Under the pieces are notes generated by a model. That model searched no databases. It had not been told where the DNA came from and was given only the letters and a program-made list of their open reading frames with translations. A DNA stretch of 64,000 nt, taken from positions 64,107 through 128,106 of the forward strand of contig JAHBVV010000018.1 in the NCBI GenBank assembly GCA_019637335.1, written 5' to 3'. The stretch's first letter is position 1, and every line of letters starts with the position of its first letter. This stretch comes from Candidatus Hydrogenedentota bacterium (GTDB taxonomy: Bacteria; Hydrogenedentota; Hydrogenedentia; Hydrogenedentales; JAEUWI01). Shown here piece by piece: positions 1 to 38,099 of the stretch. Position numbers and translations under genes: made by a program.

Positions 1-5
1 TCCCC

Positions 6-668
6 GTGCAAGACGGCGCCTTCGACTTGCTGCTCTACGACAACACGGGCGCTCTCGCCGAGACGGTGACCGTGCCCATCACCGCGGGCGCGACCTCGCT
101 CAACGATGTCGCCGCCGCGATCAACGGATCCGCCAACGCCACGGCCACCATCACCAACGGCATCCTCGAAATCACGCCCAACGCGGGCTTCACCTTCACC
201 TTTGCCAACGACACGAGCAATTACCTCGCCGCCACGGGGACCAACGGCCTGTTCACCGGCAACAGCGCCCGAAACATGCGCGTGAGCCAGCACCTGGTCG
301 ACAACCCCGCGCTGCTCAGCTCCGGCGACAGCCCCAACCTCCTCGAAACCGGGGACAACGACATCGCGCTCGAGATGGCGGCCCTGCGCAACCGGCAGTT
401 CCTCTCCGGCGGCACGGAGTCGCTCAACGACTTCTACGAATCCACGGTCGTGCAGCTGGGCATCGAGGCCCGCGCCAACCTGGATCGCCGCCAGACCCAG
501 ATCTCGGTTATCAACGACCTCAACCTCCGCCGCCAGGAAGTCTCCGGGGTCAACCTGGACGAGGAAGTGACCACGCTCATCCAGGTGCAGAAGGCCTTCG
601 ACGCCTCCGCCCGCGTCATCACCGTGACGGATCGCATGCTCGACACCCTCCTCGGCGTCGTCCGGTAG
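6..668 (+). CDS. flgK: Flagellar hook-associated protein 1 (FlgK), C-terminal fragment; 5' end truncated by the window
   Basis: The C-terminal motif GVNLDEE..LIQ.QKAFDASARVI..DRMLDTLL is the conserved FlgK/FlgE-family C-terminal helix. The ORF runs in from the window edge. Confidence 0.65.
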   Translation: MQDGAFDLLLYDNTGALAETVTVPITAGATSLNDVAAAINGSANATATITNGILEITPNAGFTFTFANDTSNYLAATGTNGLFTGNSARNMRVSQHLVDNPALLSSGDSPNLLETGDNDIALEMAALRNRQFLSGGTESLNDFYESTVVQLGIEARANLDRRQTQISVINDLNLRRQEVSGVNLDEEVTTLIQVQKAFDASARVITVTDRMLDTLLGVVR

Positions 669-836
669 CGCCCGGCCCCCCGCCAGGGCGATCGCATTTG
701 AACTTCCAACCCGAGCCGAGGGCCATATGAACCACCTTCAATGGTAAAAGGGCGCGTGTTGGAGCGCTGGAATTTCGCCTGCGGCGAATCCCGGACCTTG
801 CCGGCACCGATGCCGGCGCTCCAAAACGCTCACTTT

Positions 837-1630
837 CGTTGATTCGTAACATTTTGGTCGCCTGAAGCAGCGCCTCCCGTGGACCGCATTATTTGCCCAC
901 GGATAACGCAGGGCAGCCTCTGCCCGCAACCAAAGATAATGATCACCACGAAGGGCACGAAGACCACGAAGAGAAGAAGTTCGAGAAGGAGTGGTATTCA
1001 CGCGTAGGCGCGATAACGCAGCTGAATTGGCGCAGGCTTTATGTCTGGTTGAAGAGAGAGAACCACGAATTCACACGAATGGACACGAATGAACATTCGT
1101 AACACTTCAGCGGAATGAAGCACCCAACGCCTTGGAGGCGATTCTCGGTCAAGACGGGCGTGAATAGCCGGATCGCGTACATTTCGCGGCAACGGAAGCT
1201 CGGGAAATAGAATGACGTAGGAGGTTTGGAATGGAATCCCGGCGTCCCCAGGAGCGGAAAGCATTGTGGACCCGCGCCTCTTCACATACACGTCGATCAC
1301 GATATCTCTCGCGCTCGTCCTGCCGCGGACATGGATGTCCGCGATCCTTTGCGCCTTTCGGCGCATTGGACAGGCGGGACGCCTATCCTACATTTGCGCC
1401 TTTCGGCGCTGAACACAGCCGGGACGCCCGCCTCCGGCGCGTCGTGGAGCTGTGCCACTTTCCTTGCGAGGTGGTTTTGCCGGGGTGAGGGGAACTTTTG
1501 GAGGTGGGCTCACGTTGCCGCAGGCAAGAATTCCCGCGATCCTTTGCCGCGCTTCCTCGTTATCAACGGTCCGTTCGTGCTGTTTCCGCGTGTTGCTGCT
1601 TCAGGCGGCTAAAATGTTACGTTGATTCAA
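837..1630. repeat. Composite intergenic repeat element, copy A (MITE-like; imperfect terminal inverted repeats about 30 bp)
   Basis: Module 1 cgttgattcgtaacattttggtcgcctgaagcagcg at 837-872, with its inverse at 1595-1630. Internal modules atgatcaccacgaagggcacgaagaccacgaagag (938-972) and accacgaattcacacgaatggacacgaatgaac (1062-1095). Tandem gcgcctttcggcgc hairpins at 1351-1409. Confidence 0.5.
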
Positions 1631-1751
1631 GGTTCCGAATCGACTCAATATTACGCCCATTTACCGAGATCGAGTCTAAATGCGATTGCCCTGGCCCCCC
1701 GCGCCTTTATCCCCGCCGCGCCCCTGTGGCACAATACCCTCCCTTCAATCG

Positions 1752-1836
1752 CGGCGCCGTGACTGGCGACTTGGCGTGGAATCAACCACGAGGAAACGGG
1801 CCGCGTTGCATGTTGTGCCGCCGCTCGCCTGGGCCT
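1752..1836 (+). ncRNA. ZTP (pfl-motif) riboswitch candidate
   Basis: Core elements are visible: GUGACUGGCG (1759-1768), GGCGUGGAA-N3-ACCACGAGG (1773-1793) and the 3' pseudoknot partner CGCCUGGGC (1824-1832). It lies immediately 5' of a purH-family gene, the canonical ZTP regulon context. Confidence 0.55.
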
Positions 1837-1872
1837 GGAAGGGCGCGGGAAGGATGCGCCCTTCTGGTTTGA
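1837..1872 (+). terminator. Putative expression-platform hairpin / intrinsic terminator of the ZTP riboswitch
   Basis: aagggcgc-gggaaggat-gcgccctt stem-loop followed by ctggttt. The 5' arm overlaps the pseudoknot strand, so ligand-dependent competition is plausible. Confidence 0.35.
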
Positions 1873-1894
1873 CCGACACCAAAGGAGCATTCCC

Positions 1895-3013
1895 ATGGCC
1901 GATCAGGATCTCAAGCAGATGTACCGCACGCGCACCGAGGGCGAATTCCCCGATGCCTTCGAACTCCTCGGGCGCGCGTATGAAAAGGTGGAAAACCTCC
2001 GCTACGGCACCAACCCGCACCAGCCCGCCGCCTTCTACCGCCCCGCCGATGGCCAGAGCCTCGTGCTCGGGCGCTACGAAATCCTCAAGACCGGCAAGAG
2101 CGGCCTCTCCCAGACCAACCTGGAAGACATGCAGCACGCCATCGGCATCCTCAAGTACATGCAGCGCCCCGCCTGCGCCGTGATGAAACACTGCAATCCC
2201 AGCGGCGTGGCCATTCAGGTCGATGGCCAGTCCCTGGTCACCGTGTACGAGCGCGCGCGCGACGCCGACGCCCAGGCCGCCTTCGGCAGCGTCGTAGTCT
2301 TCAACACCGAAGTGGACGAAGCCACGGCCGCCGCCATCATGGAGACGATCGTGGAAGGGGTCGCCGCGCCGTCCTTCACCGAGGGCGCCCTGGCCGCCCT
2401 GAACGACTTCGACCGCTTCAAGCGCAACAAGGAGATCCGGGTCATCCGGGTCCCCGAGTTCTCGACGCTGCCCAAGTACATCGACGAGGCCGCGCGCGGC
2501 TACGAGATGAAGATCTTCGACGACGGCAGCATCGTCCTGGCGCAGCCCTACCTCTCGCGCGTCAAGACCGCCGCCGACCTCGTCCCGGCCTACAACGAGC
2601 ACGCGAAAAAGGGCCGTATCGACATCGCGCGCCAGCCCACCGAACGCGAACTCGACGACCTCCTCTTCGCCTGGTACGTTAACATCCATGTCCGCAGCAA
2701 CGGCGTCGTCATCGCGAAGAACGGCCAGACCCTGGCCGTCGGCACCGGCGAACAGGACCGCGTCGGGGCCGTGCAGCAGGCGATTATCAAGGCCGGCCAG
2801 AAATACCAGGGCGACGAGACGCTCGACGGCGCCGTGATGTCCTCCGACGGTTTCTTCCCCTTCCGCGACGCCGTCGACGCCGTCACCGCCGCCGGCATCC
2901 GCGCCATCGTGCAGCCGGGCGGCAGCGTCAACGACTACGACGCCATCACGGCCTGCAACGAAGCCGGCGCCACCATGGTCTTCAGCCTCGAGCGCTGCTT
3001 CTCGCACCACTGA
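1895..3013 (+). CDS. purH: AICAR transformylase domain protein (PurH family; no N-terminal IMP cyclohydrolase/MGS domain)
   Basis: LRYGTNPHQ.AAFY motif and C-terminal ...FSHH end are typical of the PurH AICARFT domain. RBS aaaggag sits 8 nt upstream of the ATG. Length 372 aa versus about 520 aa for a bifunctional PurH. Confidence 0.8.
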   Translation: MADQDLKQMYRTRTEGEFPDAFELLGRAYEKVENLRYGTNPHQPAAFYRPADGQSLVLGRYEILKTGKSGLSQTNLEDMQHAIGILKYMQRPACAVMKHCNPSGVAIQVDGQSLVTVYERARDADAQAAFGSVVVFNTEVDEATAAAIMETIVEGVAAPSFTEGALAALNDFDRFKRNKEIRVIRVPEFSTLPKYIDEAARGYEMKIFDDGSIVLAQPYLSRVKTAADLVPAYNEHAKKGRIDIARQPTERELDDLLFAWYVNIHVRSNGVVIAKNGQTLAVGTGEQDRVGAVQQAIIKAGQKYQGDETLDGAVMSSDGFFPFRDAVDAVTAAGIRAIVQPGGSVNDYDAITACNEAGATMVFSLERCFSHH

Positions 3014-3169
3014 TCCGCGCCCCCGGGCTGGTGGCGAAATTTCCGCCGGCCCGGGGGGCTCCATGCTCGCTCCGTCTTTTCGCCAACGTGTTACTTTTGT
3101 CGTAACACTTTAGCCGTCTGAAGTAGGGCGTTCGCCGATACGAGAATCCTTACTTACAAAGGATGTATT

Positions 3170-3256
3170 CGTCATTCCCGCGAAGGCGGGAATCCAGAGG
3201 GTTTGCGAGGTTAACGTTGCATGGTCTCTGGATCCCCACTTTCGTGGGGATGACGG
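3170..3256. repeat. REP-like palindromic hairpin pair (VIPAKAGIQ-type repeat)
   Basis: Two hairpins: cattcccgcgaaggcgggaatcc and ggatccccactttcgtggggatgac. The same family recurs at 8148-8440. Confidence 0.6.
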
Positions 3257-3393
3257 TGCTCGATCACCGAGAGCCGCCACCGTTGGGTGCGACGAGGGCG
3301 ACTACTTCATACGGCTAAAGTTTTACCTTTTGTCTTTGTTTCCTTGCGGGTGCTGTGCTTCAATAGGGTGGAAACCTCGGGAGGATCGTTGCC

Positions 3394-4794
3394 ATGAAAC
3401 GTGTAGCCACGCTTCTTGTGTTGTTGTTTACGGCGATACCGGTCTGGGCGGGGCCGGCGGTGGTGGAAAAGCACAGCGTGCCGCTGGCGTCGGTGCGGGA
3501 CCGAATTCCGTGCGCGTTTTTCCAGCCCGATTTTTTGCATGGGGACAGCAATTACCACTCGCTGGTGTCGGCGTCGGACGGGAACCTTTATTTTTCGATC
3601 GACACGCACAACACGGACTATGCCTGCCGGTTTTACCGCTTCGATCCAAAGACGGAGACGATGACGACGATCGCGGCGATGGACGCGCCGGCGGGGGAGG
3701 ACGCGACGCGGGAGATATCGCAGGGGAAGATCCATGTGCCGTTCTACGAGCACGGGGGCAAGCTGTATTTTGCGACGCACCTGTCGTTCTACCAGGATGG
3801 CCTGCCGGGCTATGACGCGGGGGGAAAGCCGCTGTACCAGGGGGGGCTCTTCATGTCGTACGACCTGGCGTCGGGAGACTTCGAGACGCTGGCGCGCGTG
3901 CTGCCGGACGAGGGGATCATCACGTGCCTGCTGGACCCGAAGCGGGAGGTGCTGTACGGGCTGACGTGGCCGTCGGCGCTGCTGGTCTCGTATGACCTGA
4001 AGGCGGGCGCGCTGCATTCGTGGGGCGCGGTGCAGGGCCGGGGCGAATGGGGCCACCACCCGGAGGAGTGGGACCGCGTATGCCGGACACTGGCGCTGGA
4101 GCCGAACGGGAACCTCTACGGATCGACGATGGACGGGCGGATCTGGCGCTTCGAGCCGGACAAGCGCCCGCGTCCGCTGTCGTACATCGAGGGCCTCGAT
4201 CTAAAACAGCTGACCTTTTCGCAGTCGGCGAAGGAGACGCTGAAGGGGAATTTCCAGTACAACTGGCGGGTGGTGGAGTGGAACCCGGCGACGGAGAGCT
4301 TCTTCGGGGTGCAGTGGGAGACGACGGCGCTGTTCGAGTTTGTGCCCGATCAGGAGTACCTGCGCGCGCTGTGCGATTTCCGGCACGACGCCTATAAGGG
4401 CATGCCGCGGAATCCGGAGATCAGCCAGCTGGGTTTTGTGCTGGCGCCCGACAACAACACGATCCTCTACCTGGCGAACGGGCCGGCCGTGACCGTGCCG
4501 GGGCGTCCCGAGGTGCAGTCGGGCCTGTGGCTGCTGACCTACGACATTGCGGCGGGAACGATGAAGAACCACGGACTGGTGATCGGCCCGGAGGACCGGC
4601 GTCCGTTCTTCACGGAGAGCCTGGTGATCGGCGCGGACGAGCGGTTGTACACCGTGGCGTGGACCGAGGTGATCGATCCGGCGCGCCGCGCGCAGATCGG
4701 CGAGGCGCGGGCCTTCGGTCCCGAGGAGACGGAGCGGATGGTCTACGAGATCCAGCTGGTGCGGCTTCCGAAATGGCGGAAATTCGCGCGCTGA
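3394..4794 (+). CDS. Secreted hypothetical protein (signal peptide; beta-propeller-like repeats likely)
   Basis: RBS gggagga; N-terminal MKRVATLLVLLFTAIPVWA signal peptide; 466 aa with coding-like codon bias; no recognisable catalytic motif. Confidence 0.6.
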   Translation: MKRVATLLVLLFTAIPVWAGPAVVEKHSVPLASVRDRIPCAFFQPDFLHGDSNYHSLVSASDGNLYFSIDTHNTDYACRFYRFDPKTETMTTIAAMDAPAGEDATREISQGKIHVPFYEHGGKLYFATHLSFYQDGLPGYDAGGKPLYQGGLFMSYDLASGDFETLARVLPDEGIITCLLDPKREVLYGLTWPSALLVSYDLKAGALHSWGAVQGRGEWGHHPEEWDRVCRTLALEPNGNLYGSTMDGRIWRFEPDKRPRPLSYIEGLDLKQLTFSQSAKETLKGNFQYNWRVVEWNPATESFFGVQWETTALFEFVPDQEYLRALCDFRHDAYKGMPRNPEISQLGFVLAPDNNTILYLANGPAVTVPGRPEVQSGLWLLTYDIAAGTMKNHGLVIGPEDRRPFFTESLVIGADERLYTVAWTEVIDPARRAQIGEARAFGPEETERMVYEIQLVRLPKWRKFAR

Positions 4795-5016
4795 ACGCGC
4801 TCGGCCTCCGCCGAATCCCTGACCGTGCCGGCAGAGATGCCGGCGCTCCAGCGGCGCGACATTTTCCCACGATTCGCAGCCTGTATGTCTCCAAGCCGCC
4901 GTCACCCGTTGCAATGCGATTGCCCCGCGGGCTTCGCTGGACTCCCCCGGTTGGGGTGGGCTATCGTGGTGCTTCCCGCCGCCCGATCGCGGGCGCCCCG
5001 ACCAGGAGAGAAGACC

Positions 5017-7643: not shown

Positions 7644-8117
7644 ATGGCTGCGCCGGAAAAACTTCAGCATTACGCGTCGAGGATCCGAATTTTCAACGGT
7701 TTGACGGTGGAGGAGGTGGATTACATCCTGCATTGCGGGAAGATCATCCATTTCCGGGAGGGGCAGACGGTGTTTCACGAGGGGATGCTGGGGAGCAACC
7801 TGTTCGTGATCCTGAGCGGGAAGGTGGCGATCTACAAGAAGAAGCGCCTGATCGCGCATTGCAAGGTGGGGGATGCGTTCGGGGAGATGGCGGTGCTGAA
7901 TCAGCGACCGCGATCGGCGACGGCGGCGGCGCGGGAGGATGTGAAGCTGTTCACGCTGGATGAACGGCAGATCAATGAGATCCTGGACAAGGCGGTGGCG
8001 GTGAAGCTGCTGTTGAACGTGATCCATGTGTTGAGCGAGCGGCTGGAGAATGCAAACCATATTATCGCGCAGCTGAAGGACGAGAAGAGCGAATTTGACC
8101 GGTCGGGCGGGGCCTGA
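7644..8117 (+). CDS. Stand-alone cyclic-nucleotide-binding domain protein
   Basis: gaggag RBS. FREGQTVFHEGMLGSNLFVILSGKV...GDAFGEMAVL matches the cNMP-binding/CAP effector domain. No DNA-binding domain follows (157 aa). Confidence 0.65.
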   Translation: MAAPEKLQHYASRIRIFNGLTVEEVDYILHCGKIIHFREGQTVFHEGMLGSNLFVILSGKVAIYKKKRLIAHCKVGDAFGEMAVLNQRPRSATAAAREDVKLFTLDERQINEILDKAVAVKLLLNVIHVLSERLENANHIIAQLKDEKSEFDRSGGA

Positions 8118-8147
8118 CCGTTGACAGTTGGCGAAGGGTGAAGACGA

Positions 8148-8440
8148 CCGTCATTCCCGCGAATGGGGCTGTCGCTTTAACTGGTGCGGACGCCTCAAAA
8201 CCTCCAAGTTTGTGCTGCTGTCCTACAACGTCATTCCCGCGAAAGCGGGAATCCAGTGGAAGTCGGAGGTTTGTGCGATCGCGTTGCTGGATCCCCGCGT
8301 TCGCGGGGATGACGGAACTGCTCATTCCTTCCATAGTGTAGGGTGAGTTAAGTAAATCGACAGCCCCGAAAGAGGGAATCCAGAGGATTTCAGCTTTCGC
8401 ATTTCTGGATCTCCGCGGTCGCAGCGATGACGGTTGCCTT
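8148..8440. repeat. Cluster of REP-like palindromic hairpin repeats (VIPAKAGIQ-type)
   Basis: At least four hairpin units: gtcattcccgcgaaagcgggaatccag, ggatccccgcgttcgcggggatgac, and degenerate copies. Same family as 3170-3256. Confidence 0.6.
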
Positions 8441-8472: not shown

Positions 8473-11400
8473 TCAGGGATCGACCGCCTTGGCGATTGGG
8501 GTTTCGGGCGGGGTGGATTCGGGGTTTTGGGGTTCCGTTTGGGGGACTTCGGGCGCTCGGATGGTCAGGCCTTCCGCGCCGCGAAGAATGGAAAGCGCGA
8601 ATTCCCAGTCGCCATGCCGGACGGCGGTTTTCACGAGGATGCGGTTCACGCCCGCGCGCAGGGGGACCTCGATGCGGTCCTGATCGATCAGGCAGATGCG
8701 CGAGACGGGATTCTGGTGGACCTCCTGGCCGTTGACCCAGATGCGGGTCCAGCCGCTGCTGCCGTGGGCGAAGGTCACGGCGCGCTCGTCGGGGCTTTCC
8801 ACTTCGGCGGCGGCGTAGGCGGCGTGGTTGCTGAGGTGGCCGCGCCCGTCCACGAAGAGCCTTCCGGGCGACAGCACCGGGCAGATCGCTCGGGGTCCCA
8901 CTTCGCGCCAGCCGGCCAGGGCGGCGCCATCGGACTCACCGCGCAGCCACGCGGCCAGGGGCGCGTCCAGCGGGGCGGCCATGGTCTCCCAATCGGGCAA
9001 CGCCGCCGGATCGCTGAGGCGCCAGGCGTCGACCAGGCCGGTCCACAGCGCGATTTCGTGGGCTTCGTGCGCGGGCGCGCCTAGCGCGTCGGGGTCGATG
9101 GGTTCGGGCGTGGCGCCGGCGAGACGGGCGAAGCGGCTGCGAAGGGCGATCAGATCGGAGACGCGGTGATGGGCGGGGTCCGCCTCGATGAGCGAGCGCA
9201 GAAGCGTGTCGGCCGCGTCCCAGCGCTCCGGGACGGCATTGGCGAGGATGGCGTCCCGGGCATTCGCCACGCGTTCCTGGCGGGCGGGGAGCATCTCGGC
9301 GAAAACCTGGATCGCCTCGGTGACGGCGCCCTGCTTGAGGTGAAGGGTGATGCGGACTTCCGCGGCGTGATCGCGCACGTCGGATCTGAAGGCGGGGTTG
9401 TTCCGGGCGCGATCGTAGACGGCGCCGGCGTCTTCCGGCAGTCCGGCGTCCAGGAAGAGGCCCGCGAATTCGTCGACCCAGTTTTCCTGGAAGTCCGGGG
9501 AGTCGAGCAGGGCGCGGTAGCGGGCGAGGGCGTCTTCCTGTTCGCCGCGCGCGCGCGCGATCCAGGCCAGGTTGTAGTCGCGCTGTGCATCCGGGTAGCT
9601 GAGGGCCTGGAGGCGATCCAGCAGGGCCAAGGTGGTTTCGCTTTCCGGGAGCTTGGCGATGAGGTCGAGCGCGCGGTAGGGATGGCTCAAGAGTTCGGGG
9701 TAGCGCTCGGACGCGTCGAGAAGTGCTTTGGCGGCCTCGCCGGCGGCGCCGGACTGCGTGAGCCGGTAGATCAGATCGCCAAGTCCACGCGAATCGTAGC
9801 GGGCGGCGGGGAATCCGGCGACGAGCGCGGCGGCGGCGGCGCGCAGGTTGCCGAGGGAATGAAACAGGTCGCTGTACTCGGCGACCTGGCTGGCGCGCGC
9901 CCAGACGACGGGCTCCAGGAGGGCGGCCACTTCGGCGCGGGCGTCACCGTTTCCATCGGCGGCGCGGAGCTGTTTCGAGACGACCAGCAGGGCGCCGGAG
10001 AGCGACGGAAACTCGCCGGATGCGGCCTGTGCGGCGAAATCGCGCCAGCGCGCGCCCTCTGCGAGAAATCGGCCATAGTCGCGCTCGAACTGTTCCCGCG
10101 ATTCGCCCGAGCGGACGGCGTGGCGGGCTTCCATCGCGGCGGGGATTTCGGCGGCGGCCCCGCTTTTGAAGAGCACTTCGGCGTAGAGCATATCCGCCTC
10201 GGTGTCGCGGGTGCGGAAGGTCGCCGGCGTCTCCAGTACTTCGCGGGCGGCGTCGAATTGGCCGTTTTCCATGAGGAGCTGGGCCAGGGCGATGCCCTCG
10301 CGCCCGCCATGGCGTGGACCGAAGGTGCGCCAGAGATCCATGGCTTCCGCGTACGAGCCAACGCCCGCCAGGGAAGCGGCGAGGACCATGGCGGCCTCCG
10401 TGTTCGCGGGTTCGGCCTCCAGCACGGCGCGGCAGTCCGCGATGGCCTTTTCCCAGGCTTTCTCGCGGCGGTAGAGCACGGCGCGCTGCAGCCGGTAGCC
10501 CGCGTTTTCATCGTTGAATTCGATCTGGTCGAGCATTTCAACGGGCGCACCCCCGCGGGCGGCGGCCTGGCGGGCCTCGTTGATCGCTTGCTGGACCGCT
10601 TCCCGGGTGTTTTCGGACGGATCTTCGGGCCGCTTCGGATTGAGGGCCTCGCGCAGGGGCGGCGGGAGCTCGTTAAGGACGGCGTCCCGCCCCTGGGCGA
10701 CGCGGAAATCCTTGACCTCAACATCGAGCCATTCGAGCGCGGACGCCATATGCCCGAGGTGGGCTTCCAGGCCCGCGAGGAAGACGCGTTCGTTCAGGGT
10801 GAGTACTGATTGGGCTCGCGCGGCTTCCACGAGCGCGCGGGCGGCCTCGGCGGGGGCGGCATGCTCGCGGGCCTTTTCGAAGGCCATGCGGAAATGGGAG
10901 CTGAAATCGTAGTTGTTTTCTTCCCGGCGCGCGGTCTCCCAGGCGAGCTGCCAGGCGGCCTCGTGATCGCCCGCGGCAATGAGCACCCGCGCGATCCGCG
11001 ATGCGTCATTGAACGCCAGGCCCTCCGCGCCTCCCGCGCCCCGGTATTCGCGGAAGGCCCGGGCCGCCGCCTCCCAGTCTCCCCGCTGTTCGAGGTAATC
11101 CATGTAGCGCCGGAGGCCCTGGGCGTCGCGATTCGCCTCCCAGGCATCCCGGAGCGCGGCGCCCGGATCGCGCCCGGGGACTTCACTGTCGAAGGCGGAG
11201 GCGAGCATCGGCCGGGCGGACGCCGGGGCTTTTTCCAGGACGGCGTCCCGCAGGGCGCGAAGGCCTTCGAAGTCGCCGGTATTGCGGTACGCTTCGGCGG
11301 CGTAGCGCGCGTAGGAATGGTGCGGGCTCTCGTTTCGGTTAAGCCAGCTGGCGAGTGCGGCCTTCCGTTCCTCGGGCCGCCCGGCGACTTCAAGCAGGCG

Positions 11401-14400
11401 CTGGTATCGCTGGATCTCGCGCGATTCCTCGGGAAGGCGCTCCATGATTTCGACCGCCCGGCCGTAGTCGCCGAGCTGCTCGTAGATATCCACCATGCGC
11501 AGCTGGATGCCGGGATTTTCGGGATGGCGCGCGGCGATGGGGGCCAGGCGTTCGAGCGCGAGCGGGGGAAAATCGCGGTAGTCCTGCGTGAGTTTTTCGG
11601 CAAACTGCCCTCCGTACTGGCTGGCCTGATCGAACAGGAGGTCGATGGTCGACGTGGCAATGTTTTCGCGTTTGACATGCTCCTCGATAATGATCTCGCC
11701 GAGGTTTCGGTATGTCCAGTCCGATCTGGGCATTCGGGGGGCGATATCGAGAAAATACCGCTCGGCGGGGCTGTGGTAGCCAGCGCGAATCAGGCTTTCG
11801 ATGGCCTGAATGTGCACGTGCGGGGACGCCTGATGCTCCGCCTGCAATTTGTATTGGGCCACGGCCCCGTCGGGGTCCCCTTTCTTCAGATAGAGCGCGG
11901 CAAGCCGCTGATAGTCCCTGCCGCCACGCGCGGGATCCGGCTGATCCACGAAGGCGAGGGCCTCGTCCCATTTCCCCTGTTTTTCCGCGAGGTCCGACAG
12001 CAACCGGCGTATACCGGGCTCGTCCTGGCCGCCCAGCAACTTTTCGAGATCGGTGCGCGCGTCGGCGTAGCGTTTTTCATGCTGCGCGATCATGGCGGCC
12101 ATAAGCGCCCAGCGGCGGGCGTCGGGATCCGCCGCGCGTCCGGCCTCCACGCGGGCCTTGAGATCCGCCAGCGCGCCGGCCTGGGCAAAGCGCGAAACCG
12201 CCGTGGCGAAGGGGGCGCCGTGGACGCCCGCATCGAGGTTGTGCTCATCCTTTTCGAGGAAGTCCCGCCAGACCGCGATCGACTTGTCCCGCTGGCCGCC
12301 GCGCCAGTAGTAGTCGGCGATTTGGGCGAAGAGCATCTGGTTTTCGGGGTGAATCCGCTGGACGCGCTCCAGCATCTCCGCGGCTTTTCCCCATTCCTGA
12401 TCGCGCGCGAAGCGCTGGGCCAGTTCGTGCATCTGCGCGGGGTCGCGCGCCTCCTCCATCAGGCGATCCCGAAGCGCCTCCAGGTCCTCGGTCTTGTTCA
12501 GTTCCTGGTAGAGCCGCTGCAATTCGTTGGAGAATGCGCGACGGTTGCCGGGGTTTGCGCGGGCGAGGTCTTCGAGTTTTGCGAGCGCGGCCTCCTTTTC
12601 GCCGTTGGCCTCCAGGAGGCTGGCGTGTAGCAGGGCGATCTGGGCGTCGTTCGGGCGGCGCGCCAGCAATTCCCCGGCCTGCTTGAGAGCGAGATCGGGC
12701 CGCTTGTTCTGCGCGTGAATCCCGACGAGGGCCATGTGCAGGGTCACCGCGTTGGGCTGGCCGGCCAGCTGTTCTTCAAACGAAGCGATGAGTGCGGGCA
12801 TTTGCCCCGCTTTCTCCGAGGCATCCCAGAGCGGGTGCAGCGCTTGAAGGCCCAGCGAGCCGAGGTTCAGGTTCTGGTGCTGGTAGCCAAAACTCGGGTG
12901 GCGGGGGCCGAGCCGCCCTGCGCCGGCGGACTGGAGTTGCCAGGCTTCGCGGGCCAGCGTAATGGCCTGTTTGTGTTCGCCCGCGCGGGTATGGGCCTGC
13001 GACAGGAGGGCGAGCGTCTCCGGACGCCGGGCGCGCGCCAGATCTTCTTCGAGCAGGAGGCGGGCCTTATCGGGCGCGCCCCCCTGTTCGAGCGCGCGGA
13101 CGACACGGCTGAGATAGGCGGTGTTTCCGCCGAGTGCCATCCAATTCCGGTAGTGCGACACCGCCTCATCATGGTTATTGCGCGCGAGGGCGAGGTGCAG
13201 CCGCGCCTGGGCAATGTCGGCCGGGCGAAGCGCCGGATCTTTTTCGAGGGCGTCGTAGAGCGGCGCCATTTCGTTGTGGCGGCCGAGCACATCGAGGAAC
13301 AGTGCCCGGAAATTGATTAGCAGAAAGTCGCCCGGGCGCGCTTCAAGAAGCGAATCCACCTCCGCAAGCGCGGCCTCCGGGCCGGCGGAATTGAATTGCG
13401 AAGCGATATAGAAGGCGACGAAACCCGCCGCGCGGGCCTGCGCTTCGGGTGTATTCGCCGCGGTATAGGCGCGCGCCTCCTCGCGAAGGCGATCGATGAT
13501 CGGCTCCAGTTTATCGCCATCCGTATCCATCTGAACCAGGAATTGAAAGGCCTGAAGGCGCCCATGATCTTGTGGAACGAAATTCACCCCGAACATTTGT
13601 CCCAAGTTACCGGACGAGATCCAGGGCCGCCCGTCGATCCGGGGCATGTGCATTCGGGCAGGGCGCTGGGCCATCGTGGGCGCGGCGGGATCCGCTTCCG
13701 CGAAAAGGAGATCGGTGTACAGTTCGCGGGCGCGACCGATTTCGCCACGCATGCGGCTGGTCTGGGCGAGCTGGTTGTTAATCTGGCGGCGGAGCGCGGG
13801 ATTGAGGGCGGCCGCCTTTTCGAATTGGGCCTCGGCCTCGTCGTGGCGATTGAAGCGGCTCAGATGGTAGCCGAGCTCGAGGTGGAGATGCGGATCTTCC
13901 GGGGCGAAGGAGACAAGCCGGTCGACCAGTTCGGCGGCTTCCTCGGTGTCTTCCCGGGCGAAATACAGCCCGAGCAGGTGGAACATGGCCCGCCGGGCGG
14001 CGCCGGCGTCCTCGCTGGCGGCCAGCGATTGCGCGAGCGCAATGGCGCCGTCGATGTCTTCCACGGATTCCGTCAGGTGGACCAGGCGCCAGCGCAGGTC
14101 GGTGTCTTCGGGGTAGATTTCGGCCAGCCCCCGGGCGACGGCGAGGGCCTGCTTGTTGTCCCCGGCCAGTTCGCACACCGCCAGGTAGTCGAAGCGCGCG
14201 TCGATATTGTCGGGGTTGGCTTCGGCGCGCTCCGCGTACTCCGCGAGCAGGGTATCCTGTTCGCCGGTTTGCCGGGCGATCTGGACGAGCAGCTGGAGCA
14301 CCTGGCTGCGCATGGCGTCGAAACCGGAGACATTCCGGCCGCCCATCCGCGCAACGGGCATGGGGCGGAAGGCGGAGGATGACGTGTTCCAGCCGCCGAA

Positions 14401-17391
14401 GCCGCCCTGGCTGAAGCCGCCCAGCCTGCCGCCGCCGAAGCCGCCGTACGGCATATGCGGCGAGACGAACGCGGGCGCGAGCGGTGATGGCGCGGGGCTT
14501 CCCGGGGCGGGCTGTGCGGAGCCCTGGCCGCCTTCGGGTTCCGGGCGCTCGCCGATTTCGAGGATGCGTTTGAGTTCCGCCACGGCCTCGTCGGGCAGGT
14601 TGTTGTTGAGCAGTTCCACGGCGTGCTGGTAGCGCAGGTTGTAATCGTAGGGATCGATCGCGAGCGCGCGCTGGATGAAATCGCGGGCGCGCTCCAAATA
14701 GCCGTTTTCAAAGAGCGAACGCGCGACCATGACCTGCGCGGCGGAGTCTTCCGCGTTTTCCTCCGCGATGGACTCCCATACCGAGACGGCGGCCTCGAGG
14801 TCGCCCGTCCGCGCATGCGCTTGCGCGAGGCGATCCAATTCAAAGACGGACGGCTGGCCCGAGAGCGCAATGAGGGCGGTGTGCGCTTCCACGACCTTCC
14901 GGTAGTCGCCGTTGTCGTAGGCCTCGGCGAGTAGGAGCCGGAGCAGGGCCGCTTCGTCCTCAACAACGCCGCGGGCGCTTTCGAGCGCGGCGAAGGCGGC
15001 GGGGCGATCGCCGGCGGCGCGGTAGGCGGCGGCGAGCTCCTGGTAGGCCCCGAGATCGCGGGGCGCGTTGCGGAGCCGGTCCTGGAACTCGCGCACGATG
15101 ATGTCGGCCTGACCCATCCGGACATAGACCGAGGCCAGGCGCGATACGGCGTCGGGCCGCTGCGCGTCCTGGCTGGTTTCCAGCATCTTCCGGAAGGCGT
15201 CCGCGGCTTCGCCAAACTGGTTTGTTCGCAGGAGGGCGTCGCCGAAGTCGCGGTAGTAGGCGGGCTCGTCGCCATCGATCTGGATGAGGTTGCGGAATTG
15301 CTGGAGGGCCTTTTCGGCTTCGCCGTAGCGCAGGTAGGTCGCGGCGAGCTCGGCGCGGGCCTCGGCGCTGCCCGGCGCACGCTCCACGAGCTGCTCCGCG
15401 GCGCGGATGGCCGCGTCCCGGTCGCCGGCGGTGGCGTAGAGGCCGAGCAGTTCGCGCAGGTAGCCGTTGGCGCGGGCGGGGTCGGCCACCATGAGGCCCT
15501 CAAGGACGGCGGCGGCCTCGGCGGTTTTCCGGTTCATGCGGAGGGCCTCGGCAAGCCGGCGCTTGATTTCGATGTTGCCGGGGTCGAGTTTCGCGCACTC
15601 GGCGTAAAGGGCCGCGGCGCGGGGCCGGTTGCCCATGCGGCTGTAGAGGCGGGCGAGCCTCATGCGCGGTGCGACGGCCTCTGGCGAGGCGGCCACTTCC
15701 CGTTCCCAGGCCTCACGCCGTTCATCGAGCGTTTCCAGCGCGGCGTACGCGTCCAGGAGGCCCTGTTCGCCGCGGTCCTGAAAGAAGGCCTGATCCTCCG
15801 CTTCGGCCAGGCGCTCGAACAGCGGGATCGCGCCCTCGACATCGCCGGAAGCGACCCGCAGGCGCGCGCTGGACAGGACGTAGTCGAGGTTGTCCGGATC
15901 CTGGTTCATGGCGCGGTCGTAGAGCTTGAGGGCGTCCTCGGCCAGGTCGTGCGAGGCCAGGATGCCGGCCACCTCGGCGAGCGCCTCGGCGGGGGTGTCC
16001 CCGGCGGCGACGGCGGCCTCCCAAGCGGCGCGCGCGGCGTCTTCCTCGCCCTGTGCGTACTGGATGGACGCGACCCGGAGCCGCCACTCGCGGTCCGCGC
16101 GCAATGCCAGGGCGCGGGCGTAGGCGGCGGCGGCCTCCGGGTAGAACTCGCGCCGTTCAAGCCATTCCGCGTGGCGGGCGTGGTCCTCGGCGGTGGCCGC
16201 GTCACCGGCGGCGGTTCGCGCCCAGGCTTCCAGGGCCTTTTCCGGCTGATTGTGCCGCAGCCAGGCTTCGCCGAGGCGGCGGAGGAAGTCGGGATCGTTC
16301 GGGAAGCGGTCGATCAGCGTTTCATAAGCCGCCGCCATTTCGTCGAGGCGCCCGGCCTGTTCATAAATGCGCAGCAGCAACTCCCAGGCGCTCTGGCGGG
16401 TGGGCGCCCGATCGATCACGGCCCGGGCGGTGGCCTCCGCGGCGTCGGGCTCTTCCCGTCGGAGGTGGATCTGTGCGAGCAGTTCCTGGAATTCCAGATC
16501 CTGGGGGTTCGCCTCCACGCGGGCCTCCAGATACGCCACGAGCCCTGCAAGATCGCCCTGGGCCTCGTACACCGAAACGAGGCGGTCCTTCAGGTCGGCG
16601 TGCAGCCAGTTGCCGGGCGCGGCCAGCGCGAGACCCGCTTCAAACGCGGCGATGGCGCCGGGGTAATCGGGAATGGCGGCGCGCGCGCGGCCGAGCGAAC
16701 GCAGCGCGCTGCATTGCCGGTAGGGGTCGTCCTTCGCGGCGTCGGCGAGGCGCTCCCAGGTCGCGGCGGCGCGGTCCCACAGGCGGTTGGCCTCGAAGAG
16801 CTCGGCGAGTTCCTGGAGCGCGAAATGGTCGCCGGGCGCGGCGTCGGCGAGGCGTTCCCACGTGGCGATGGCCTCGTCCTGGTTTCCGGAACGGAGGTAG
16901 ACGTTGCCGAGGAGGCGGCTGAGGCGCGCGCGCTCCTCCGGCTGCTCGACGGACTCGAGGGCGGCGGACAACACCTCAATGGCCTCGGCGTCGCGCCCCG
17001 CGTCGTAGTAGAGCTGGCCGAGCATCTTGTCCAGCGCGGGGTCGCTTGCCCCCTCGGCGCGGGCTTCGAGGAACGCGGTGATGGCCTCGCCGGTACGCAG
17101 CTGGCGCGCGAGGATGCGCCCGCGCAGGATCAGGCGCGCCTCGTACGGCATGCCGTTGTCGCCGGATTCGAGGCGTTTCAGCCAGGCGTCGACACCCTCG
17201 GATACGAGCCAGGCGTCGTAGACGCGGTCGAAGGCCTGTTCCTGGTAGGGGTTTCGGGCGAGGACCTGCTCGTAGCGGTCTCGAATCTGCTGCTGGGCCG
17301 GATCGAGGGGGACGCCGGCCGGGGGATCCTGCGCGGCGGCGGCTACGGCGATCAGCAACAGAACGGCGCGTGTGATGTGCCGGAAAAACAT
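8473..17391 (-). CDS. Giant secreted tetratricopeptide-repeat protein (2972 aa)
   Basis: N-terminal signal peptide MFFRHITRAVLLLIAVAAAAQ. Hundreds of TPR-like A/L/Y/E/R-rich helical repeats. A central Gly/Pro/Phe-rich low-complexity linker. A C-terminal non-TPR beta-rich domain. Confidence 0.8.
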   Translation of the reverse strand: MFFRHITRAVLLLIAVAAAAQDPPAGVPLDPAQQQIRDRYEQVLARNPYQEQAFDRVYDAWLVSEGVDAWLKRLESGDNGMPYEARLILRGRILARQLRTGEAITAFLEARAEGASDPALDKMLGQLYYDAGRDAEAIEVLSAALESVEQPEERARLSRLLGNVYLRSGNQDEAIATWERLADAAPGDHFALQELAELFEANRLWDRAAATWERLADAAKDDPYRQCSALRSLGRARAAIPDYPGAIAAFEAGLALAAPGNWLHADLKDRLVSVYEAQGDLAGLVAYLEARVEANPQDLEFQELLAQIHLRREEPDAAEATARAVIDRAPTRQSAWELLLRIYEQAGRLDEMAAAYETLIDRFPNDPDFLRRLGEAWLRHNQPEKALEAWARTAAGDAATAEDHARHAEWLERREFYPEAAAAYARALALRADREWRLRVASIQYAQGEEDAARAAWEAAVAAGDTPAEALAEVAGILASHDLAEDALKLYDRAMNQDPDNLDYVLSSARLRVASGDVEGAIPLFERLAEAEDQAFFQDRGEQGLLDAYAALETLDERREAWEREVAASPEAVAPRMRLARLYSRMGNRPRAAALYAECAKLDPGNIEIKRRLAEALRMNRKTAEAAAVLEGLMVADPARANGYLRELLGLYATAGDRDAAIRAAEQLVERAPGSAEARAELAATYLRYGEAEKALQQFRNLIQIDGDEPAYYRDFGDALLRTNQFGEAADAFRKMLETSQDAQRPDAVSRLASVYVRMGQADIIVREFQDRLRNAPRDLGAYQELAAAYRAAGDRPAAFAALESARGVVEDEAALLRLLLAEAYDNGDYRKVVEAHTALIALSGQPSVFELDRLAQAHARTGDLEAAVSVWESIAEENAEDSAAQVMVARSLFENGYLERARDFIQRALAIDPYDYNLRYQHAVELLNNNLPDEAVAELKRILEIGERPEPEGGQGSAQPAPGSPAPSPLAPAFVSPHMPYGGFGGGRLGGFSQGGFGGWNTSSSAFRPMPVARMGGRNVSGFDAMRSQVLQLLVQIARQTGEQDTLLAEYAERAEANPDNIDARFDYLAVCELAGDNKQALAVARGLAEIYPEDTDLRWRLVHLTESVEDIDGAIALAQSLAASEDAGAARRAMFHLLGLYFAREDTEEAAELVDRLVSFAPEDPHLHLELGYHLSRFNRHDEAEAQFEKAAALNPALRRQINNQLAQTSRMRGEIGRARELYTDLLFAEADPAAPTMAQRPARMHMPRIDGRPWISSGNLGQMFGVNFVPQDHGRLQAFQFLVQMDTDGDKLEPIIDRLREEARAYTAANTPEAQARAAGFVAFYIASQFNSAGPEAALAEVDSLLEARPGDFLLINFRALFLDVLGRHNEMAPLYDALEKDPALRPADIAQARLHLALARNNHDEAVSHYRNWMALGGNTAYLSRVVRALEQGGAPDKARLLLEEDLARARRPETLALLSQAHTRAGEHKQAITLAREAWQLQSAGAGRLGPRHPSFGYQHQNLNLGSLGLQALHPLWDASEKAGQMPALIASFEEQLAGQPNAVTLHMALVGIHAQNKRPDLALKQAGELLARRPNDAQIALLHASLLEANGEKEAALAKLEDLARANPGNRRAFSNELQRLYQELNKTEDLEALRDRLMEEARDPAQMHELAQRFARDQEWGKAAEMLERVQRIHPENQMLFAQIADYYWRGGQRDKSIAVWRDFLEKDEHNLDAGVHGAPFATAVSRFAQAGALADLKARVEAGRAADPDARRWALMAAMIAQHEKRYADARTDLEKLLGGQDEPGIRRLLSDLAEKQGKWDEALAFVDQPDPARGGRDYQRLAALYLKKGDPDGAVAQYKLQAEHQASPHVHIQAIESLIRAGYHSPAERYFLDIAPRMPRSDWTYRNLGEIIIEEHVKRENIATSTIDLLFDQASQYGGQFAEKLTQDYRDFPPLALERLAPIAARHPENPGIQLRMVDIYEQLGDYGRAVEIMERLPEESREIQRYQRLLEVAGRPEERKAALASWLNRNESPHHSYARYAAEAYRNTGDFEGLRALRDAVLEKAPASARPMLASAFDSEVPGRDPGAALRDAWEANRDAQGLRRYMDYLEQRGDWEAAARAFREYRGAGGAEGLAFNDASRIARVLIAAGDHEAAWQLAWETARREENNYDFSSHFRMAFEKAREHAAPAEAARALVEAARAQSVLTLNERVFLAGLEAHLGHMASALEWLDVEVKDFRVAQGRDAVLNELPPPLREALNPKRPEDPSENTREAVQQAINEARQAAARGGAPVEMLDQIEFNDENAGYRLQRAVLYRREKAWEKAIADCRAVLEAEPANTEAAMVLAASLAGVGSYAEAMDLWRTFGPRHGGREGIALAQLLMENGQFDAAREVLETPATFRTRDTEADMLYAEVLFKSGAAAEIPAAMEARHAVRSGESREQFERDYGRFLAEGARWRDFAAQAASGEFPSLSGALLVVSKQLRAADGNGDARAEVAALLEPVVWARASQVAEYSDLFHSLGNLRAAAAALVAGFPAARYDSRGLGDLIYRLTQSGAAGEAAKALLDASERYPELLSHPYRALDLIAKLPESETTLALLDRLQALSYPDAQRDYNLAWIARARGEQEDALARYRALLDSPDFQENWVDEFAGLFLDAGLPEDAGAVYDRARNNPAFRSDVRDHAAEVRITLHLKQGAVTEAIQVFAEMLPARQERVANARDAILANAVPERWDAADTLLRSLIEADPAHHRVSDLIALRSRFARLAGATPEPIDPDALGAPAHEAHEIALWTGLVDAWRLSDPAALPDWETMAAPLDAPLAAWLRGESDGAALAGWREVGPRAICPVLSPGRLFVDGRGHLSNHAAYAAAEVESPDERAVTFAHGSSGWTRIWVNGQEVHQNPVSRICLIDQDRIEVPLRAGVNRILVKTAVRHGDWEFALSILRGAEGLTIRAPEVPQTEPQNPESTPPETPIAKAVDP

Positions 17392-17639
17392 TTCAGCTCT
17401 CCTCGCGGGGGTATGGTTCAGCCACTTCCTCCACTATAACGCATGCGGGGGGGGATTTTGGAGGACTTGTATGGGGCGCGGGGATGGTGTCACCGGTTGG
17501 TGGCGTTGTGTGGGCGCCGTCGCCCGACGCACTGTGTCGAGGATTCGGAATGAGAATGGACGGCGGCTTCGCCGCCTGGCAGGCGGGGACGCCCGCGCTC
17601 CCAGCCTTTGACGCTCCCATACTCGGGGCATGCTTTAAC

Positions 17640-18210
17640 TTGGTTTGGACGTAACAGTTTAGCCGTCTGAAGCAAAGAAGATTTTCAACCACGAATGAAC
17701 TTAGAGCAGCCCTGGGCCGCAACCAAAGAAATGATCACCACGAAGGGCGCGAAGCTCACGAAGAGAAAGAGAGACGAAGATTTGACCGCAGAGAGCGCAG
17801 AGAACGCATAGGGTGATTTCTTGTACGCGGATGGATTGGGTGGATGATCGAGAGGGCATCCTTAACCACGAATGAACACCAATGCACACGAATGCGCCGG
17901 GAGCAGCGGCTGGCCTTGATCAGGAGTTGTGACCACGGATTACACTGATGACACGGATAGAAAGGCGTTCCGGTCGTTGAGGCCAGGCGGCGGCTGCGCG
18001 GATCTTTGGAAAAACTCCTTCGTTGCGGCGAAAGGTTGATCTATGTTCTCTGCGGCCAATCAGGTTTTTCGTTACTTGGATGCTTGGCTGTGGGCCTGGG
18101 AAAAGGCTGGTTGAACTGAATTTCGGTTACTTATTCGTGTCCGTTCGTGTCCATTCGTGGTTCAACTGCTACTCAAATCCATACAGCTAAAGAATTACGT
18201 TTGGACAAGG
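17640..18210. repeat. Composite intergenic repeat element, copy B (same family as 837-1630 and 38100-38730)
   Basis: Module 1 gtaacagtttagccgtctgaagc at 17651-17676, with an inverse-like end gctaaagaattacgtttggac near 18187-18207. Module 2 atgatcaccacgaagggcgcgaagctcacgaagag (17726-17765). GCAGAGARC tandem units. Module 3 accacgaatgaacaccaatgcacacgaatgcgcc (17866-17897), with inverse copy 18134-18160. Module 4 tgtgaccacggat...gacacggatag...ttccggtcgttgaggc (17926-17982). Confidence 0.55.
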
Positions 18211-18317
18211 TAGGTCTGAAAATTCCGGGTCGCGAGTTCTCGGAGCTTACGCACGAACGCCCCTCGGCGGGCGCGTGGGGCGATCGCGTGGCGCGAAGGA
18301 AGGCGGTTTTGCGCGGG

Positions 18318-20168
18318 CTATTGCACGTAGGGGGCGGTCACGTGCGTGGGCTCCCAGTGCTCGGGAGCGCGCCAGAGCGAGCTGAGGACCAATTGGCGCA
18401 TGAGCATGAATTCCTTGGGGAGGCGATCGTAGAGCTTGATGAAGAGCTCTTCGTGCGAGAGGATTTCGGCTTCCCAGTTGGCTCGGTCGACGGACATGAT
18501 CTCGTCGAACTGCTTCTCGGTAAAGTCGAGGCCGGTCCAGTCGATGTCTTCGTAGCGTGGGACCCAGCCGAGGGGGCTTTCCTCGGCGTAGGCGCGGCCG
18601 TGCACCTTGTCGACGATCCACTTGAGGATGCGGACGTTTTCGCCGAAGCCGGGCCACACGAACTTGCCGTCCGGATCCTTGCGGAACCAATTCACACCGA
18701 AGATGCGGGGCGGGTTGTTGATGGTGCGGCCGATATCCATCCAGTGGCTCCAGTAATCGGCCATGTGGTAGCCGATGAAGGGGAGCATGGCGAAGGGGTC
18801 GCGGCGGACGTTACCCACGGAGCCGGCGGCGGCGGCGGTGGTCTCCGAGCCCATGGTGGCGGCGAGGTAGACGCCGTAGTTCCAGTTGTAGGCCTGCATG
18901 ACGAGGGGGACGGTGGAGCTGCGGCGCCCGCCGAAGATGAAGGCGTCGATGGGGACACCGCGCGGGTCCAGGTAGGCCGGGTCGGCGCAGGGGCAGTTGG
19001 AGAGGCGCGCGGTGAAGCGGGCGTTCGGGTGCGCGGCGGGTGCGCCGCTCGCCGGAGTCCAGGCGTCGCCGCGCCAGTCCACGAGGTTGGGCGGCGGTGT
19101 GGGGGTCATGCCTTCCCACCAGACGTCGCCTTCGGGTGTGAGGGCGACATTGGTGAAGATGGTGTCGCGGGCGACGCTGGCCATGGCGTTGCGGTTGGAA
19201 TCGAAGGAGGTTCCGGGCGCGACGCCGAAGAAGCCGGCCTCGGGGTTGATGGCGTAGAGTTTGCCGTCGGGCCCGGGCTTGATCCACGCGATGTCGTCGC
19301 CCACGGTGGAGATTTTGTAATCGGAGAAGGTCTCCGGGGGGATCATCATGGCGAAATTCGTTTTGCCGCAGGCGCTGGGGAAGGCGGCGGCGATGTAGGT
19401 CTTTTCGCCGCCGGGCGCGGTGACGCCGAGGATGAGCATGTGCTCGGCAAGCCACCCCTCGTCGCGGGCCATGCAGGAGGCGATGCGGAGGGCGAAGCAT
19501 TTCTTGCCGAGGAGGGCGTTGCCGCCGTAGCCGCTGCCGAAGGACCAGATGCTGCGCTCCTCGGGGAAGTGTACGATGTACTTGTCGTCGTTGTTGCAGG
19601 GCCAGGCGACATCCTTACGCCCGCCGGTGAGCGGCATGCCCACGGAGTGCATGCAGGGGACGAATTCATTGTGCTTGCCGAGCTCGCCGACGACGGCGCG
19701 TCCGACGCGTGTCATGATGTGCATGTTGACGACGACGTAGGGGGAGTCGGTGATCTCGACGCCGATCTCGGCAATATCGGAGCCGATCGGGCCCATGCAG
19801 AAGGGGATGACGTACATCGTGCGGCCCTGCATGCAGCCGTTGAAGAGCCCGTCGAGGGTCGCCTTCATTTTGTGGGGTTCGACCCAGTTGTTGGTGGGGC
19901 CTGCGTCCTGACGGCGGCGGCTGCAAATGAAGGTGCGGTCCTCGACGCGCGCCACATCCTTCGGGTCGGAGCGAAACAGGTAGCTGTTGGGGCGCTTTTC
20001 CTCGTTGAGCTTGATGGCCATGCCCGAGCCGACCATCTCCGCCATGATCCGGGCATACTCGGCCTGCGACCCGTCGCACCAGTAGACCGAATCGGGCTGG
20101 CACAAGTTGGCCATCTCCTTCACCCAGGAGATCAGGCCATGGTGCTTCACGTACGGGGGAATGCTCAT
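18318..20168 (-). CDS. pckG: Phosphoenolpyruvate carboxykinase (GTP)
   Basis: Full-length similarity to GTP-PEPCK: [30 protein letters not shown] (kinase-1a P-loop), and the C-terminal NWF...GENVRILKW region. Start chosen at MSIPPYV. An in-frame upstream ATG at 20228 is possible. Confidence 0.85.
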
Positions 20169-38070: not shown

Positions 38071-38099
38071 GGCGGGCGCACCACGACGGTGGCAGGGCC

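Follow-up and report, generated by a model that had tools for sequence, protein, structure and literature searches.

The locus considered here raises the question of what kind of DNA separates the flagellar gene flgK from the riboswitch-controlled purH gene in a Candidatus Hydrogenedentota contig (JAHBVV010000018.1), and how it came to lie there. In the 64,000-nucleotide stretch that was analysed (hereafter the window), this segment, designated element A, is in all likelihood a non-autonomous transposable element of the IS66 family, that is, a miniature inverted-repeat transposable element (MITE), and belongs with the ISBst12-like branch of these insertion sequences (IS), whose members carry a single open reading frame (ORF).

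Ends and target-site duplications in the window

Element A spans 846-1620, from GTAAC to GTTAC, and measures 775 bp, its junctions having been read directly. The left terminal inverted repeat (TIR; 846-872, plus strand, GTAACATTTTGGTCGCCTGAAGCAGCG) has no mismatch to the IS66-type end pattern and pairs with the right TIR (1594-1620, minus strand), 24 of the 27 positions being identical when the latter is reverse-complemented. The same inverted pair was recovered by BLAST comparison of 701-1750 with the window (845-871 and 1595-1621, 92.6% identity), and a repeat search stretched the inverted similarity weakly to 64 nt. Directly outside the two ends, the 8-mer GTTGATTC occurs at 838-845 and, as a perfect 8/8 match, at 1621-1628, and the empty site reconstructed from this target-site duplication (TSD) reads ...CTCACTTTC GTTGATTC AAGGTTCCGAA... 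The initial annotation had described a non-autonomous, MITE-like composite bounded by inverted repeats between flgK and the purH riboswitch; this description is borne out by the TIRs, by the TSD and by the match of the ends to autonomous IS66-family elements of other genomes (see below). Its limits (837-1630), however, were too wide, the outer bases being mostly those of the duplicated GTTGATTC.

No transposase ORF had been seen in A, and none was found: tblastn with an IS66 transposase against the 64-kb window gave nothing even at E<=10, and the seven ORFs that lie inside or overlap A have no Pfam match. A coding reading of the internal modules was rejected on the latter ground and because the CACGAAG array shared by A and by a second repeat cluster (C, see below) is read in different frames in the two, as seen when their sequences were compared directly.

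A degenerate pattern made from the ends of A matched six times in the window as against none in 100 shuffles, and the consensus 22-mer, with up to 6 mismatches, was present in seven copies as against 0-0.4 in shuffles. The end consensus covers 22-27 nt (GTAACAnTTTrGyCGyCTGAAG..), with GTAANANTTTRGYCGYMTGAAG as the string for scanning both strands of a genome. Three elements of 225, 548 and 775 bp are bounded by these ends within the 64 kb, each with a perfect 8-bp duplication and with a different interior. The shortest, element D (3102-3326), sits between the purH stop codon and the next gene and is another true member, overlooked in the initial annotation, which had counted three copies only. 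Its ends show 0 and 2 mismatches to the consensus, its TIRs pair at 23 of 27 positions, and its TSD (CTTTTGTC at 3094-3101 and 3327-3334) is 8/8, with ...CGTGTTA CTTTTGTC TTTGTTTCC... as the reconstructed empty site. The interior of D holds an inverted doublet of another short repeat (3170-3256) and no heptamer array. This repeat, GTCATTCCCGCGAAGGCGGGAATCCAG, which with its inverted partner makes up the doublet (3163-3260), occurs several more times at 8150-8430 (region 8140-8440) and also in two loci of other genomes (L002 and L115), and translates to spurious "IPAFAGMT / FPRRRES" peptides.

The 548-bp element B (17651-18198) has its TSD, GTTTGGAC, at 17643-17650 and 18199-18206, and its empty site was reconstructed as ...TTAACTTG GTTTGGAC AAGGTAGG... 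Inside B, a linker precedes a CACGAAG array, and there are also a GCAGAGA array and an inverted CACGAAT pair (17864-17896 and 18130-18163). About 250 bp away starts a single 2972-aa ORF rich in repeats resembling tetratricopeptide repeats (8473-17391, minus strand). B and a region at ca. 38100-38730 had both been taken for copies of A. B is indeed bounded by TIRs with a TSD, and it shares with A the ends and ca. 110 bp of modules but not the whole length, so that the two represent different subfamilies. The other region has the internal modules only: cluster C (38092-38749, plus strand) is a repeat cluster without terminal repeats, in which no match to the end pattern was found within 6 mismatches. 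It has 310 bp in common with the interior of B and 68 plus 54 bp with A, holds CACGAAG, GCAGAGA and CACGAAT arrays together with an inverted CACGGAT pair (38346-38377 and 38519-38548), and is thus related to element A without being a copy of it.

The chance of a single perfect 8-bp duplication is ca. 1.5e-5, and three such duplications directly outside inverted ends are the signature of transposition. The G+C content of the elements is 0.51-0.57 as compared with 0.65 for the window. The terminal repeat itself (846-869, 3102-3125 and 17651-17674, as well as the IS ends in loci L004 and L019, see below) contains an imperfect internal dyad, ACTTTAGCC G TCTGAAGT, to which the transposase could bind through a dimeric DNA-binding domain.

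Autonomous relatives in the IS66 family

Scanning one genome per species with the end pattern gave at least 120 loci which, among the matches listed, belong mostly to Planctomycetota, the others being from Hydrogenedentes, Elusimicrobia and further groups. At six of them (L019, L054, L076, L004, L073 and L078) the same 22-mer ends lie 1534-1537 bp apart with a single ORF of 466-480 aa, and the ORF of L019 matches Pfam DDE_Tnp_IS66 (1.4e-42) and zf-IS66 as well as NCBIfam transpos_IS66 (9.6e-80, above the cut-off). These full-length 1.53-kb elements are likewise flanked by 8-bp duplications, and numerous shorter elements (130-580 bp) at these loci share their ends. Altogether 31 elements, seven full IS and 24 short ones (window included, among the matches listed), have duplications of at least 7/8; their target has an AT-rich centre, a first position that is rarely T and a C-biased last position. 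In a genome of 65% G+C, such a preference would steer insertions to intergenic DNA. The transposases of L004 (Hydrogenedentes) and L019 (Planctomycetia) are 60% identical and the same 22-nt end has been kept, which fits its being the transposase recognition site. Within the IS66 family, ISBst12 is listed as a DDE subgroup (PMC8024623), and one member of the ISBst12 group, ISDge4, has a single transposase ORF of 449 aa, GTAAC/GTGAC ends and an 8-bp direct repeat (PMC12898284).

A link to the window comes from OW818658.1, which is a related Hydrogenedentes genome as judged from its PckG, 83% identical to that of the window, and from the gene order kept upstream of pckG. A 1537-bp IS occurs in it at three different sites, with 100% identity among the copies, which points to recent activity, and the first 25 nt of D are the end of the autonomous IS at L004 of this genome. 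Two of its MITEs (L065 4505-4898 and L037 3065-3389) resemble B in their ends and in subterminal CACGAAT arrays at both ends, and also share with B the module formed by GCAGCC..TGGCCGCAACCAAA and a CACGAAG array. Autonomous IS and MITEs have only the terminal ca. 22-26 nt in common, which indicates that the MITE interiors are not deletion remnants of the transposase gene; the subterminal arrays were considered as a part of the parent IS, and this was rejected on the same ground.

Further occurrences were recorded during these comparisons. Shortly after pckG, a related Hydrogenedentes contig (L125, ca. 8040-8280) carries part of an IS66-type transposase gene (..CPDCGGTLNRCEETRTRYTEDIPETKPEVTEHVNHRDWCSKCKKKVE..), at broadly the position that B occupies in the window, which shows that the IS66 family occurs in this lineage. 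In the metagenome-assembled genome (MAG) JBNJEM01, of a planctomycetote, these ends bound dozens of MITEs of 211-212 bp, and perfect 8-bp duplications accompany many of them (loci L020, L027, L031, L035, L041, L048, L089, L090, L103 and L120 among others), which looks like the burst of a single MITE subfamily. Many of the end matches fall within ca. 100 bp of the ends of MAG contigs (L008, L009, L016, L021, L022, L028, L046, L050, L053, L074, L077 and others), as expected if such repeats break short-read assemblies. Finally, the end pattern is present in bins assigned to Bathyarchaeota (L063) and to Thermoplasmatota (L084), where it could reflect either horizontal transfer or binning contamination.

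On this basis, the following scenario may be proposed for the insertion. An IS66-type DDE transposase of roughly 470-480 aa, encoded elsewhere, would recognise the 22-27-nt TIRs of A and insert the element in trans into the AT-rich 8-bp target GTTGATTC, which would become duplicated; B and D would have arisen in the same way at other targets.

Several observations weigh against transposition by such a system. A, B and D are alike in little but their ends, so that the "family" amounts to ca. 25 bp plus a duplication length; the right end of B is badly decayed (TIR 17/27); A, with its 775 bp, is at the upper end of MITE sizes; and no autonomous IS66 element occurs in the window, a partner transposase in the source organism being putative. 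In a metagenome-assembled contig a local mis-join within repeats is also conceivable, although the matching duplications argue against a local assembly error. Nor was an empty site found in the relatives that were compared, whose purH homologues are 93% and 90% identical (L121-L123) and whose PckG homologues are 83-86% identical (L124-L126), because they are not syntenic with the window at the three insertion points. The best purH relatives are Hydrogenedentes, none closer than 93% in a protein search, and the PckG of the window is 100% identical to MBX3179211.1, a protein from a Candidatus Hydrogenedentes MAG; in L121-L126 the adjacency of flgK and purH, the gene after purH and the gene after pckG are all not kept, and homology ends at a promoter or a stop codon.

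This lack of an empty site, and the many short repeats that fill the intergenic regions of the genome, would also suit a static cluster of intergenic repeats of the repetitive extragenic palindromic (REP) type, in which inverted ends and flanking 8-mers came together by chance or by recombination. Such an origin is nevertheless very unlikely in view of the TSD statistics, with three independent perfect duplications at ca. 1.5e-5 each; furthermore, no end matches are expected from shuffles, and identical ends bound active-looking IS copies elsewhere. Transposition by an IS66-type system remains by far the better account of A, B and D. As a separate observation, comparison of 1-3400 and 17391-18318 with L121-L126 shows that the gene order breaks exactly at the MITE-bearing intergenic regions while that upstream of pckG is kept, and rearrangement hotspots may coincide with these repeats.

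Mosaic interior and heptamer arrays

The interior of A is composed of several kinds of modules, all given here on the plus strand. At 913-973, a linker (GCAGCC..GCCCGCAACCAAAG) precedes a triple CACGAAG array of period 9 (945-972 according to Tandem Repeats Finder, TRF); among the matches listed, this linker motif is confined to loci of Hydrogenedentes, and the same holds for GCAGCCnnTGGCCGCAACCAAAG, a motif which the arrays often follow. The segment 957-1010, which overlaps this array, is also found at the far end of cluster C (38696-38749, 85% over 54 nt). A triple CACGAAT array of period 10 (AACCACGAATTCACACGAATGGACACGAATGAACA) follows at 1059-1095 (TRF 1064-1095) and matches 18163-18133 and 17864-17894 in B. 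In terms of identity, 897-975 and 17689-17767 agree at 84%, 908-975 and 38092-38158 at 94%, and 1060-1090 and 18163-18133 at 90%, further module matches being returned by BLAST of 701-1750 at 17864-17894 and 38282-38311, in agreement with a self-comparison of the whole window. In the right half of A (1123-1594), the repeat search places at 1348-1437 the tandem pair of 45-bp units of the initial annotation, both of which have a GCGCC-TTTC-GGCGC hairpin (spacing 45, 83% identity over 36 nt). A GC-rich hairpin unit in the same half (1404-1465) is 82.5% identical to L073 5764-5825 of OW818658.1, where it lies downstream of a gene, between convergent genes. The internal modules do recur in B and C as first proposed, but the heptamer modules form a separate, widespread repeat class.

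An internal, degenerate copy of the terminal repeat lies at 1099-1122 (plus strand), in the orientation of the left end and with 3 mismatches to the end pattern, and suggests that A is probably a chimera of two MITEs, adjacent or nested, of which the outer pair of ends would have served for the most recent insertion. In such a chimera, the left part (846-1098) would be B-like and a second element would begin at the decayed end at 1099. A more specific version, with a complete MITE (1099-1620) beside a B-like left fragment (846-1098), is quite possible, if somewhat doubtful. It accounts for the direct orientation of the end-like sequence relative to the left end, for the order of modules in 846-1098, which is that of B 17651-17896 (end, linker with CACGAAG, CACGAAT), and for the ATTC that precedes both 842-869 and 1095-1122. 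On the other hand, A lacks a second right end, the comparisons did not recover 1123-1594 as an element of its own at other loci, and the 8-mers flanking 1099 and 1620 agree at only 5 of 8 positions as against 8 of 8 for 846 and 1620. The inner copy, which matches the right end at 20 of 27 positions, was by these 8-mers not the end last used; the outermost ends of A would have been. This version bears on the anatomy of A only and is compatible with an IS66-type MITE, 846 and 1620 being merely the last ends used.

Triple arrays were detected by TRF in the window only in A, B and cluster C, with periods of 9 (CACGAAG, CACGGAT and GCAGAGA) or 10 (CACGAAT). Their distribution outside the window was explored with a 19-mer from the right end of B (ACCACGAATGGACACGAAT), which is identical at 17 of 19 positions to 1061-1079 of A and has more than 120 exact matches (a minimum) in metagenomes, many of them in soil and sediment loci (L127-L246, e.g. 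L212 3229-3658, L155 111-574, L140 2719-3160 and L141 7336-7428). Among the metagenomic matches listed, none of 138 occurrences has an IS66-type end within 70 bp upstream of the array, and the outer flanks are unrelated and often adjoin start or stop codons. An inverted array partner was found within 700 bp downstream for 68 of 132 arrays and upstream for 11, as against none in shuffles, and the spacing of the pairs is bimodal (33-200 bp and ca. 400-470 bp). The arrays are accordingly independent of the IS66-type ends.

The long-form units enclose a small gene: the six products tested correspond to TIGR04256 GxxExxY proteins (E 3e-41 to 3e-19), and a local profile detected GxxExxY coding segments at 19 of 120 loci, ca. 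15 of which directly abut an array (again among the matches listed). Several of these genes (e.g. L212, L246 and L153) have their start codon inside the array (..ACCACGA ATG GAC ACG AAT = MDTN..). Truncated intermediates exist (L194, L195 and L236), and at one orthologous site, with flanks 80-83% identical, the full 430-bp unit of L212 is replaced in L141 by a hairpin of 69 bp, in which a few initial codons and the stop codon are all that is left of the GxxExxY gene, which indicates that the ORF-less array hairpins are internal-deletion derivatives. No direct target duplication accompanies the array pairs; an A nearly always precedes the array, and the flanks show a tendency towards complementarity. 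No GxxExxY similarity was found in the 64-kb window, the arrays of which are ORF-less forms like that of L141. By-eye comparisons with a sigma-54 promoter, a tRNA-like 3' end, CsrA-type GGA sites and response-regulator repeats were discarded, none of these fitting all arrays; the GCAGAGA arrays, for instance, lack the GGA that a CsrA-type reading calls for.

While the association of arrays with GxxExxY genes, their pairing and the deletion series are observed, their wider interpretation is put forward tentatively: the modules of A, B and C may be part of a widespread, undescribed class of inverted-array units, whose full form of ca. 430-490 bp would carry a gene for a GxxExxY protein (PD-(D/E)XK fold), with the start codon inside the array and with ORF-less hairpins arising by internal deletion. 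That the units move by themselves and that the class is undescribed are parts of the proposal; the literature searched contained nothing on repeats around GxxExxY genes, which is not proof of absence.

It could further be argued that the array units are the entities that matter in the window, as decayed relatives of self-spreading array/GxxExxY units, and that the IS66-type ends are incidental. The arrays of cluster C, which lack such ends, the absence of these ends from all 138 metagenomic occurrences and the inverted pairing of 68 of 132 arrays agree with this. It is nonetheless improbable, since the perfect 8-bp duplications lie exactly outside the IS66-type ends and not outside the arrays, array pairs show no direct duplication, and D has ends and duplication but no heptamer array. 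In the preferred account, the interior of A is a mosaic of other short intergenic repeats, namely heptamer arrays (period 9-10 bp), the linker specific to Hydrogenedentes and GC-rich hairpin units. Within the Hydrogenedentes lineage, these would have inserted into the MITE or been captured by its IS66-type ends, with which they would now travel.

As a side observation, the array units are more unusual than the MITE itself. The arrays are the source of many spurious small ORFs (e.g. "NHEWTRMDTN") and, in many environmental bacteria, make up the arms of inverted units on either side of GxxExxY genes. Should these units be mobile or control the enclosed gene, a function and a life cycle would be gained for a large uncharacterised protein family. 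If the inverted-array interpretation is true, the MITEs of the window would be chimeras in which one selfish or structured repeat rides another, the IS66 transposase spreading array hairpins.

Neighbouring genes and known systems

Upstream of A, the ORF matches the C-terminal 221 residues of a relative's FlgK at 72% identity; this FlgK carries the FlgK_D1 and Flg_bbr_C domains. The gene downstream of A is purH. Between A and purH, a conserved purH upstream region (1702-1748, plus strand) and a ZMP/ZTP riboswitch (1749-1841, plus strand; Rfam RF01750, 44.1 bits) are both untouched by the insertion. In two relatives (L121 and L123) the purH DNA is 85-86% identical and homology begins only at 1702-1725, comprising the promoter region, the riboswitch and the gene, with wholly different upstream genes and no such element. 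A distance of ca. 75 bp hence separates A from the conserved control region downstream, on which it probably has no effect; its insertion was most likely neutral.

That A lies between flgK, a flagellar gene, and a gene under riboswitch control could instead suggest a functional cassette, cis-regulatory or encoding a small RNA, that acts on purH or flgK, and the initial annotation had mentioned promoters, terminators or small RNAs as possible cargo. As single-stranded DNA, A also folds better than its shuffles (z = -4.75), but its inverted ends together with its hairpin repeats suffice to account for this value. Nothing supports the proposed cargo: Rfam searches of A and C at the gathering cut-off and at E<=5 gave no match, the ZTP riboswitch outside A excepted, and promoter-like and terminator-like sites in A, B and D are not above shuffle expectation. 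Together with the relatives, which have the same purH promoter and riboswitch region and no such element upstream, these results make a regulatory cassette extremely unlikely, and a MITE seemingly without consequence for the control of purH or of the flagellar gene is to be preferred.

Other repeats were noted nearby and elsewhere in the window. A GC-rich hairpin repeat (..GAATCCCGGACCTTGCCGGCACCGATGCCGGCGCTCC..) occurs at 747-836 and 4804-4850 (87% identity over 47 nt), in each case a short distance past a stop codon, that of flgK and that of a gene whose end is at 4794, respectively; the arms of the first copy (747-773 and 810-836) are 81% complementary, and A is inserted directly beside it. 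This repeat may be a terminator-like or REP-like unit. Self-comparison of the window also detected short repeats at 40912-40935/45026-45049, 55996-56049/58569-58625 and 16735-16765/16837-16867, one being a perfect 24-mer.

These data document an active-looking system of ISBst12-type IS66 elements and MITEs in uncultured Hydrogenedentes, which is also present in Planctomycetota and Elusimicrobia. Its exact ends, duplication length and target preference are useful for annotating repeat-rich MAGs, and the element family may help to explain contig breaks and lost synteny near such sites. MITEs as such are commonplace; the literature searched described no IS66-derived one, which again is not proof of absence.

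When compared with known systems, A recalls the pneumococcal BOX elements in being a mosaic of short modules with ca. 45-bp tandem units and hairpins, scattered between genes. BOX elements, however, are not known to have IS-derived inverted ends or a target duplication of fixed length. The heptamer arrays are reminiscent of REP/REPIN doublets, being abundant intergenic inverted doublets that form long hairpins directly beside genes. REP/REPIN doublets are mobilised by RAYT transposases, whereas the gene found with the arrays encodes a GxxExxY (PD-(D/E)XK-like) protein, and the arms of the array units are triple direct repeats with a 9-10-bp period instead of palindromes and lack a GTAG-type motif. 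Among MITEs, those of the window are comparable to MITEPsy1 of Pseudomonas syringae, an IS5-related element that is short and non-coding, has the inverted repeats of a resident IS and a duplication typical of the family, is presumed to be mobilised in trans and was shown to transpose (PMC3189936). They differ from it in their IS66 instead of IS5 parentage and in a duplication of 8 instead of 4 bp, A being in addition much larger and having a mosaic interior, and their mobility is presumed. Finally, the GTAAC ends and 8-bp direct duplications are those of the ISBst12 group of IS66 (ISBst12 and ISDge4; PMC12898284), and the autonomous relatives (L004, L019 and others) conform to this group with ca. 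1.53 kb and one DDE_Tnp_IS66/zf-IS66 transposase of 466-480 aa, without the three-gene tnpA/B/C arrangement of classic IS66, whereas the elements of the window, at 225-775 bp, encode nothing.

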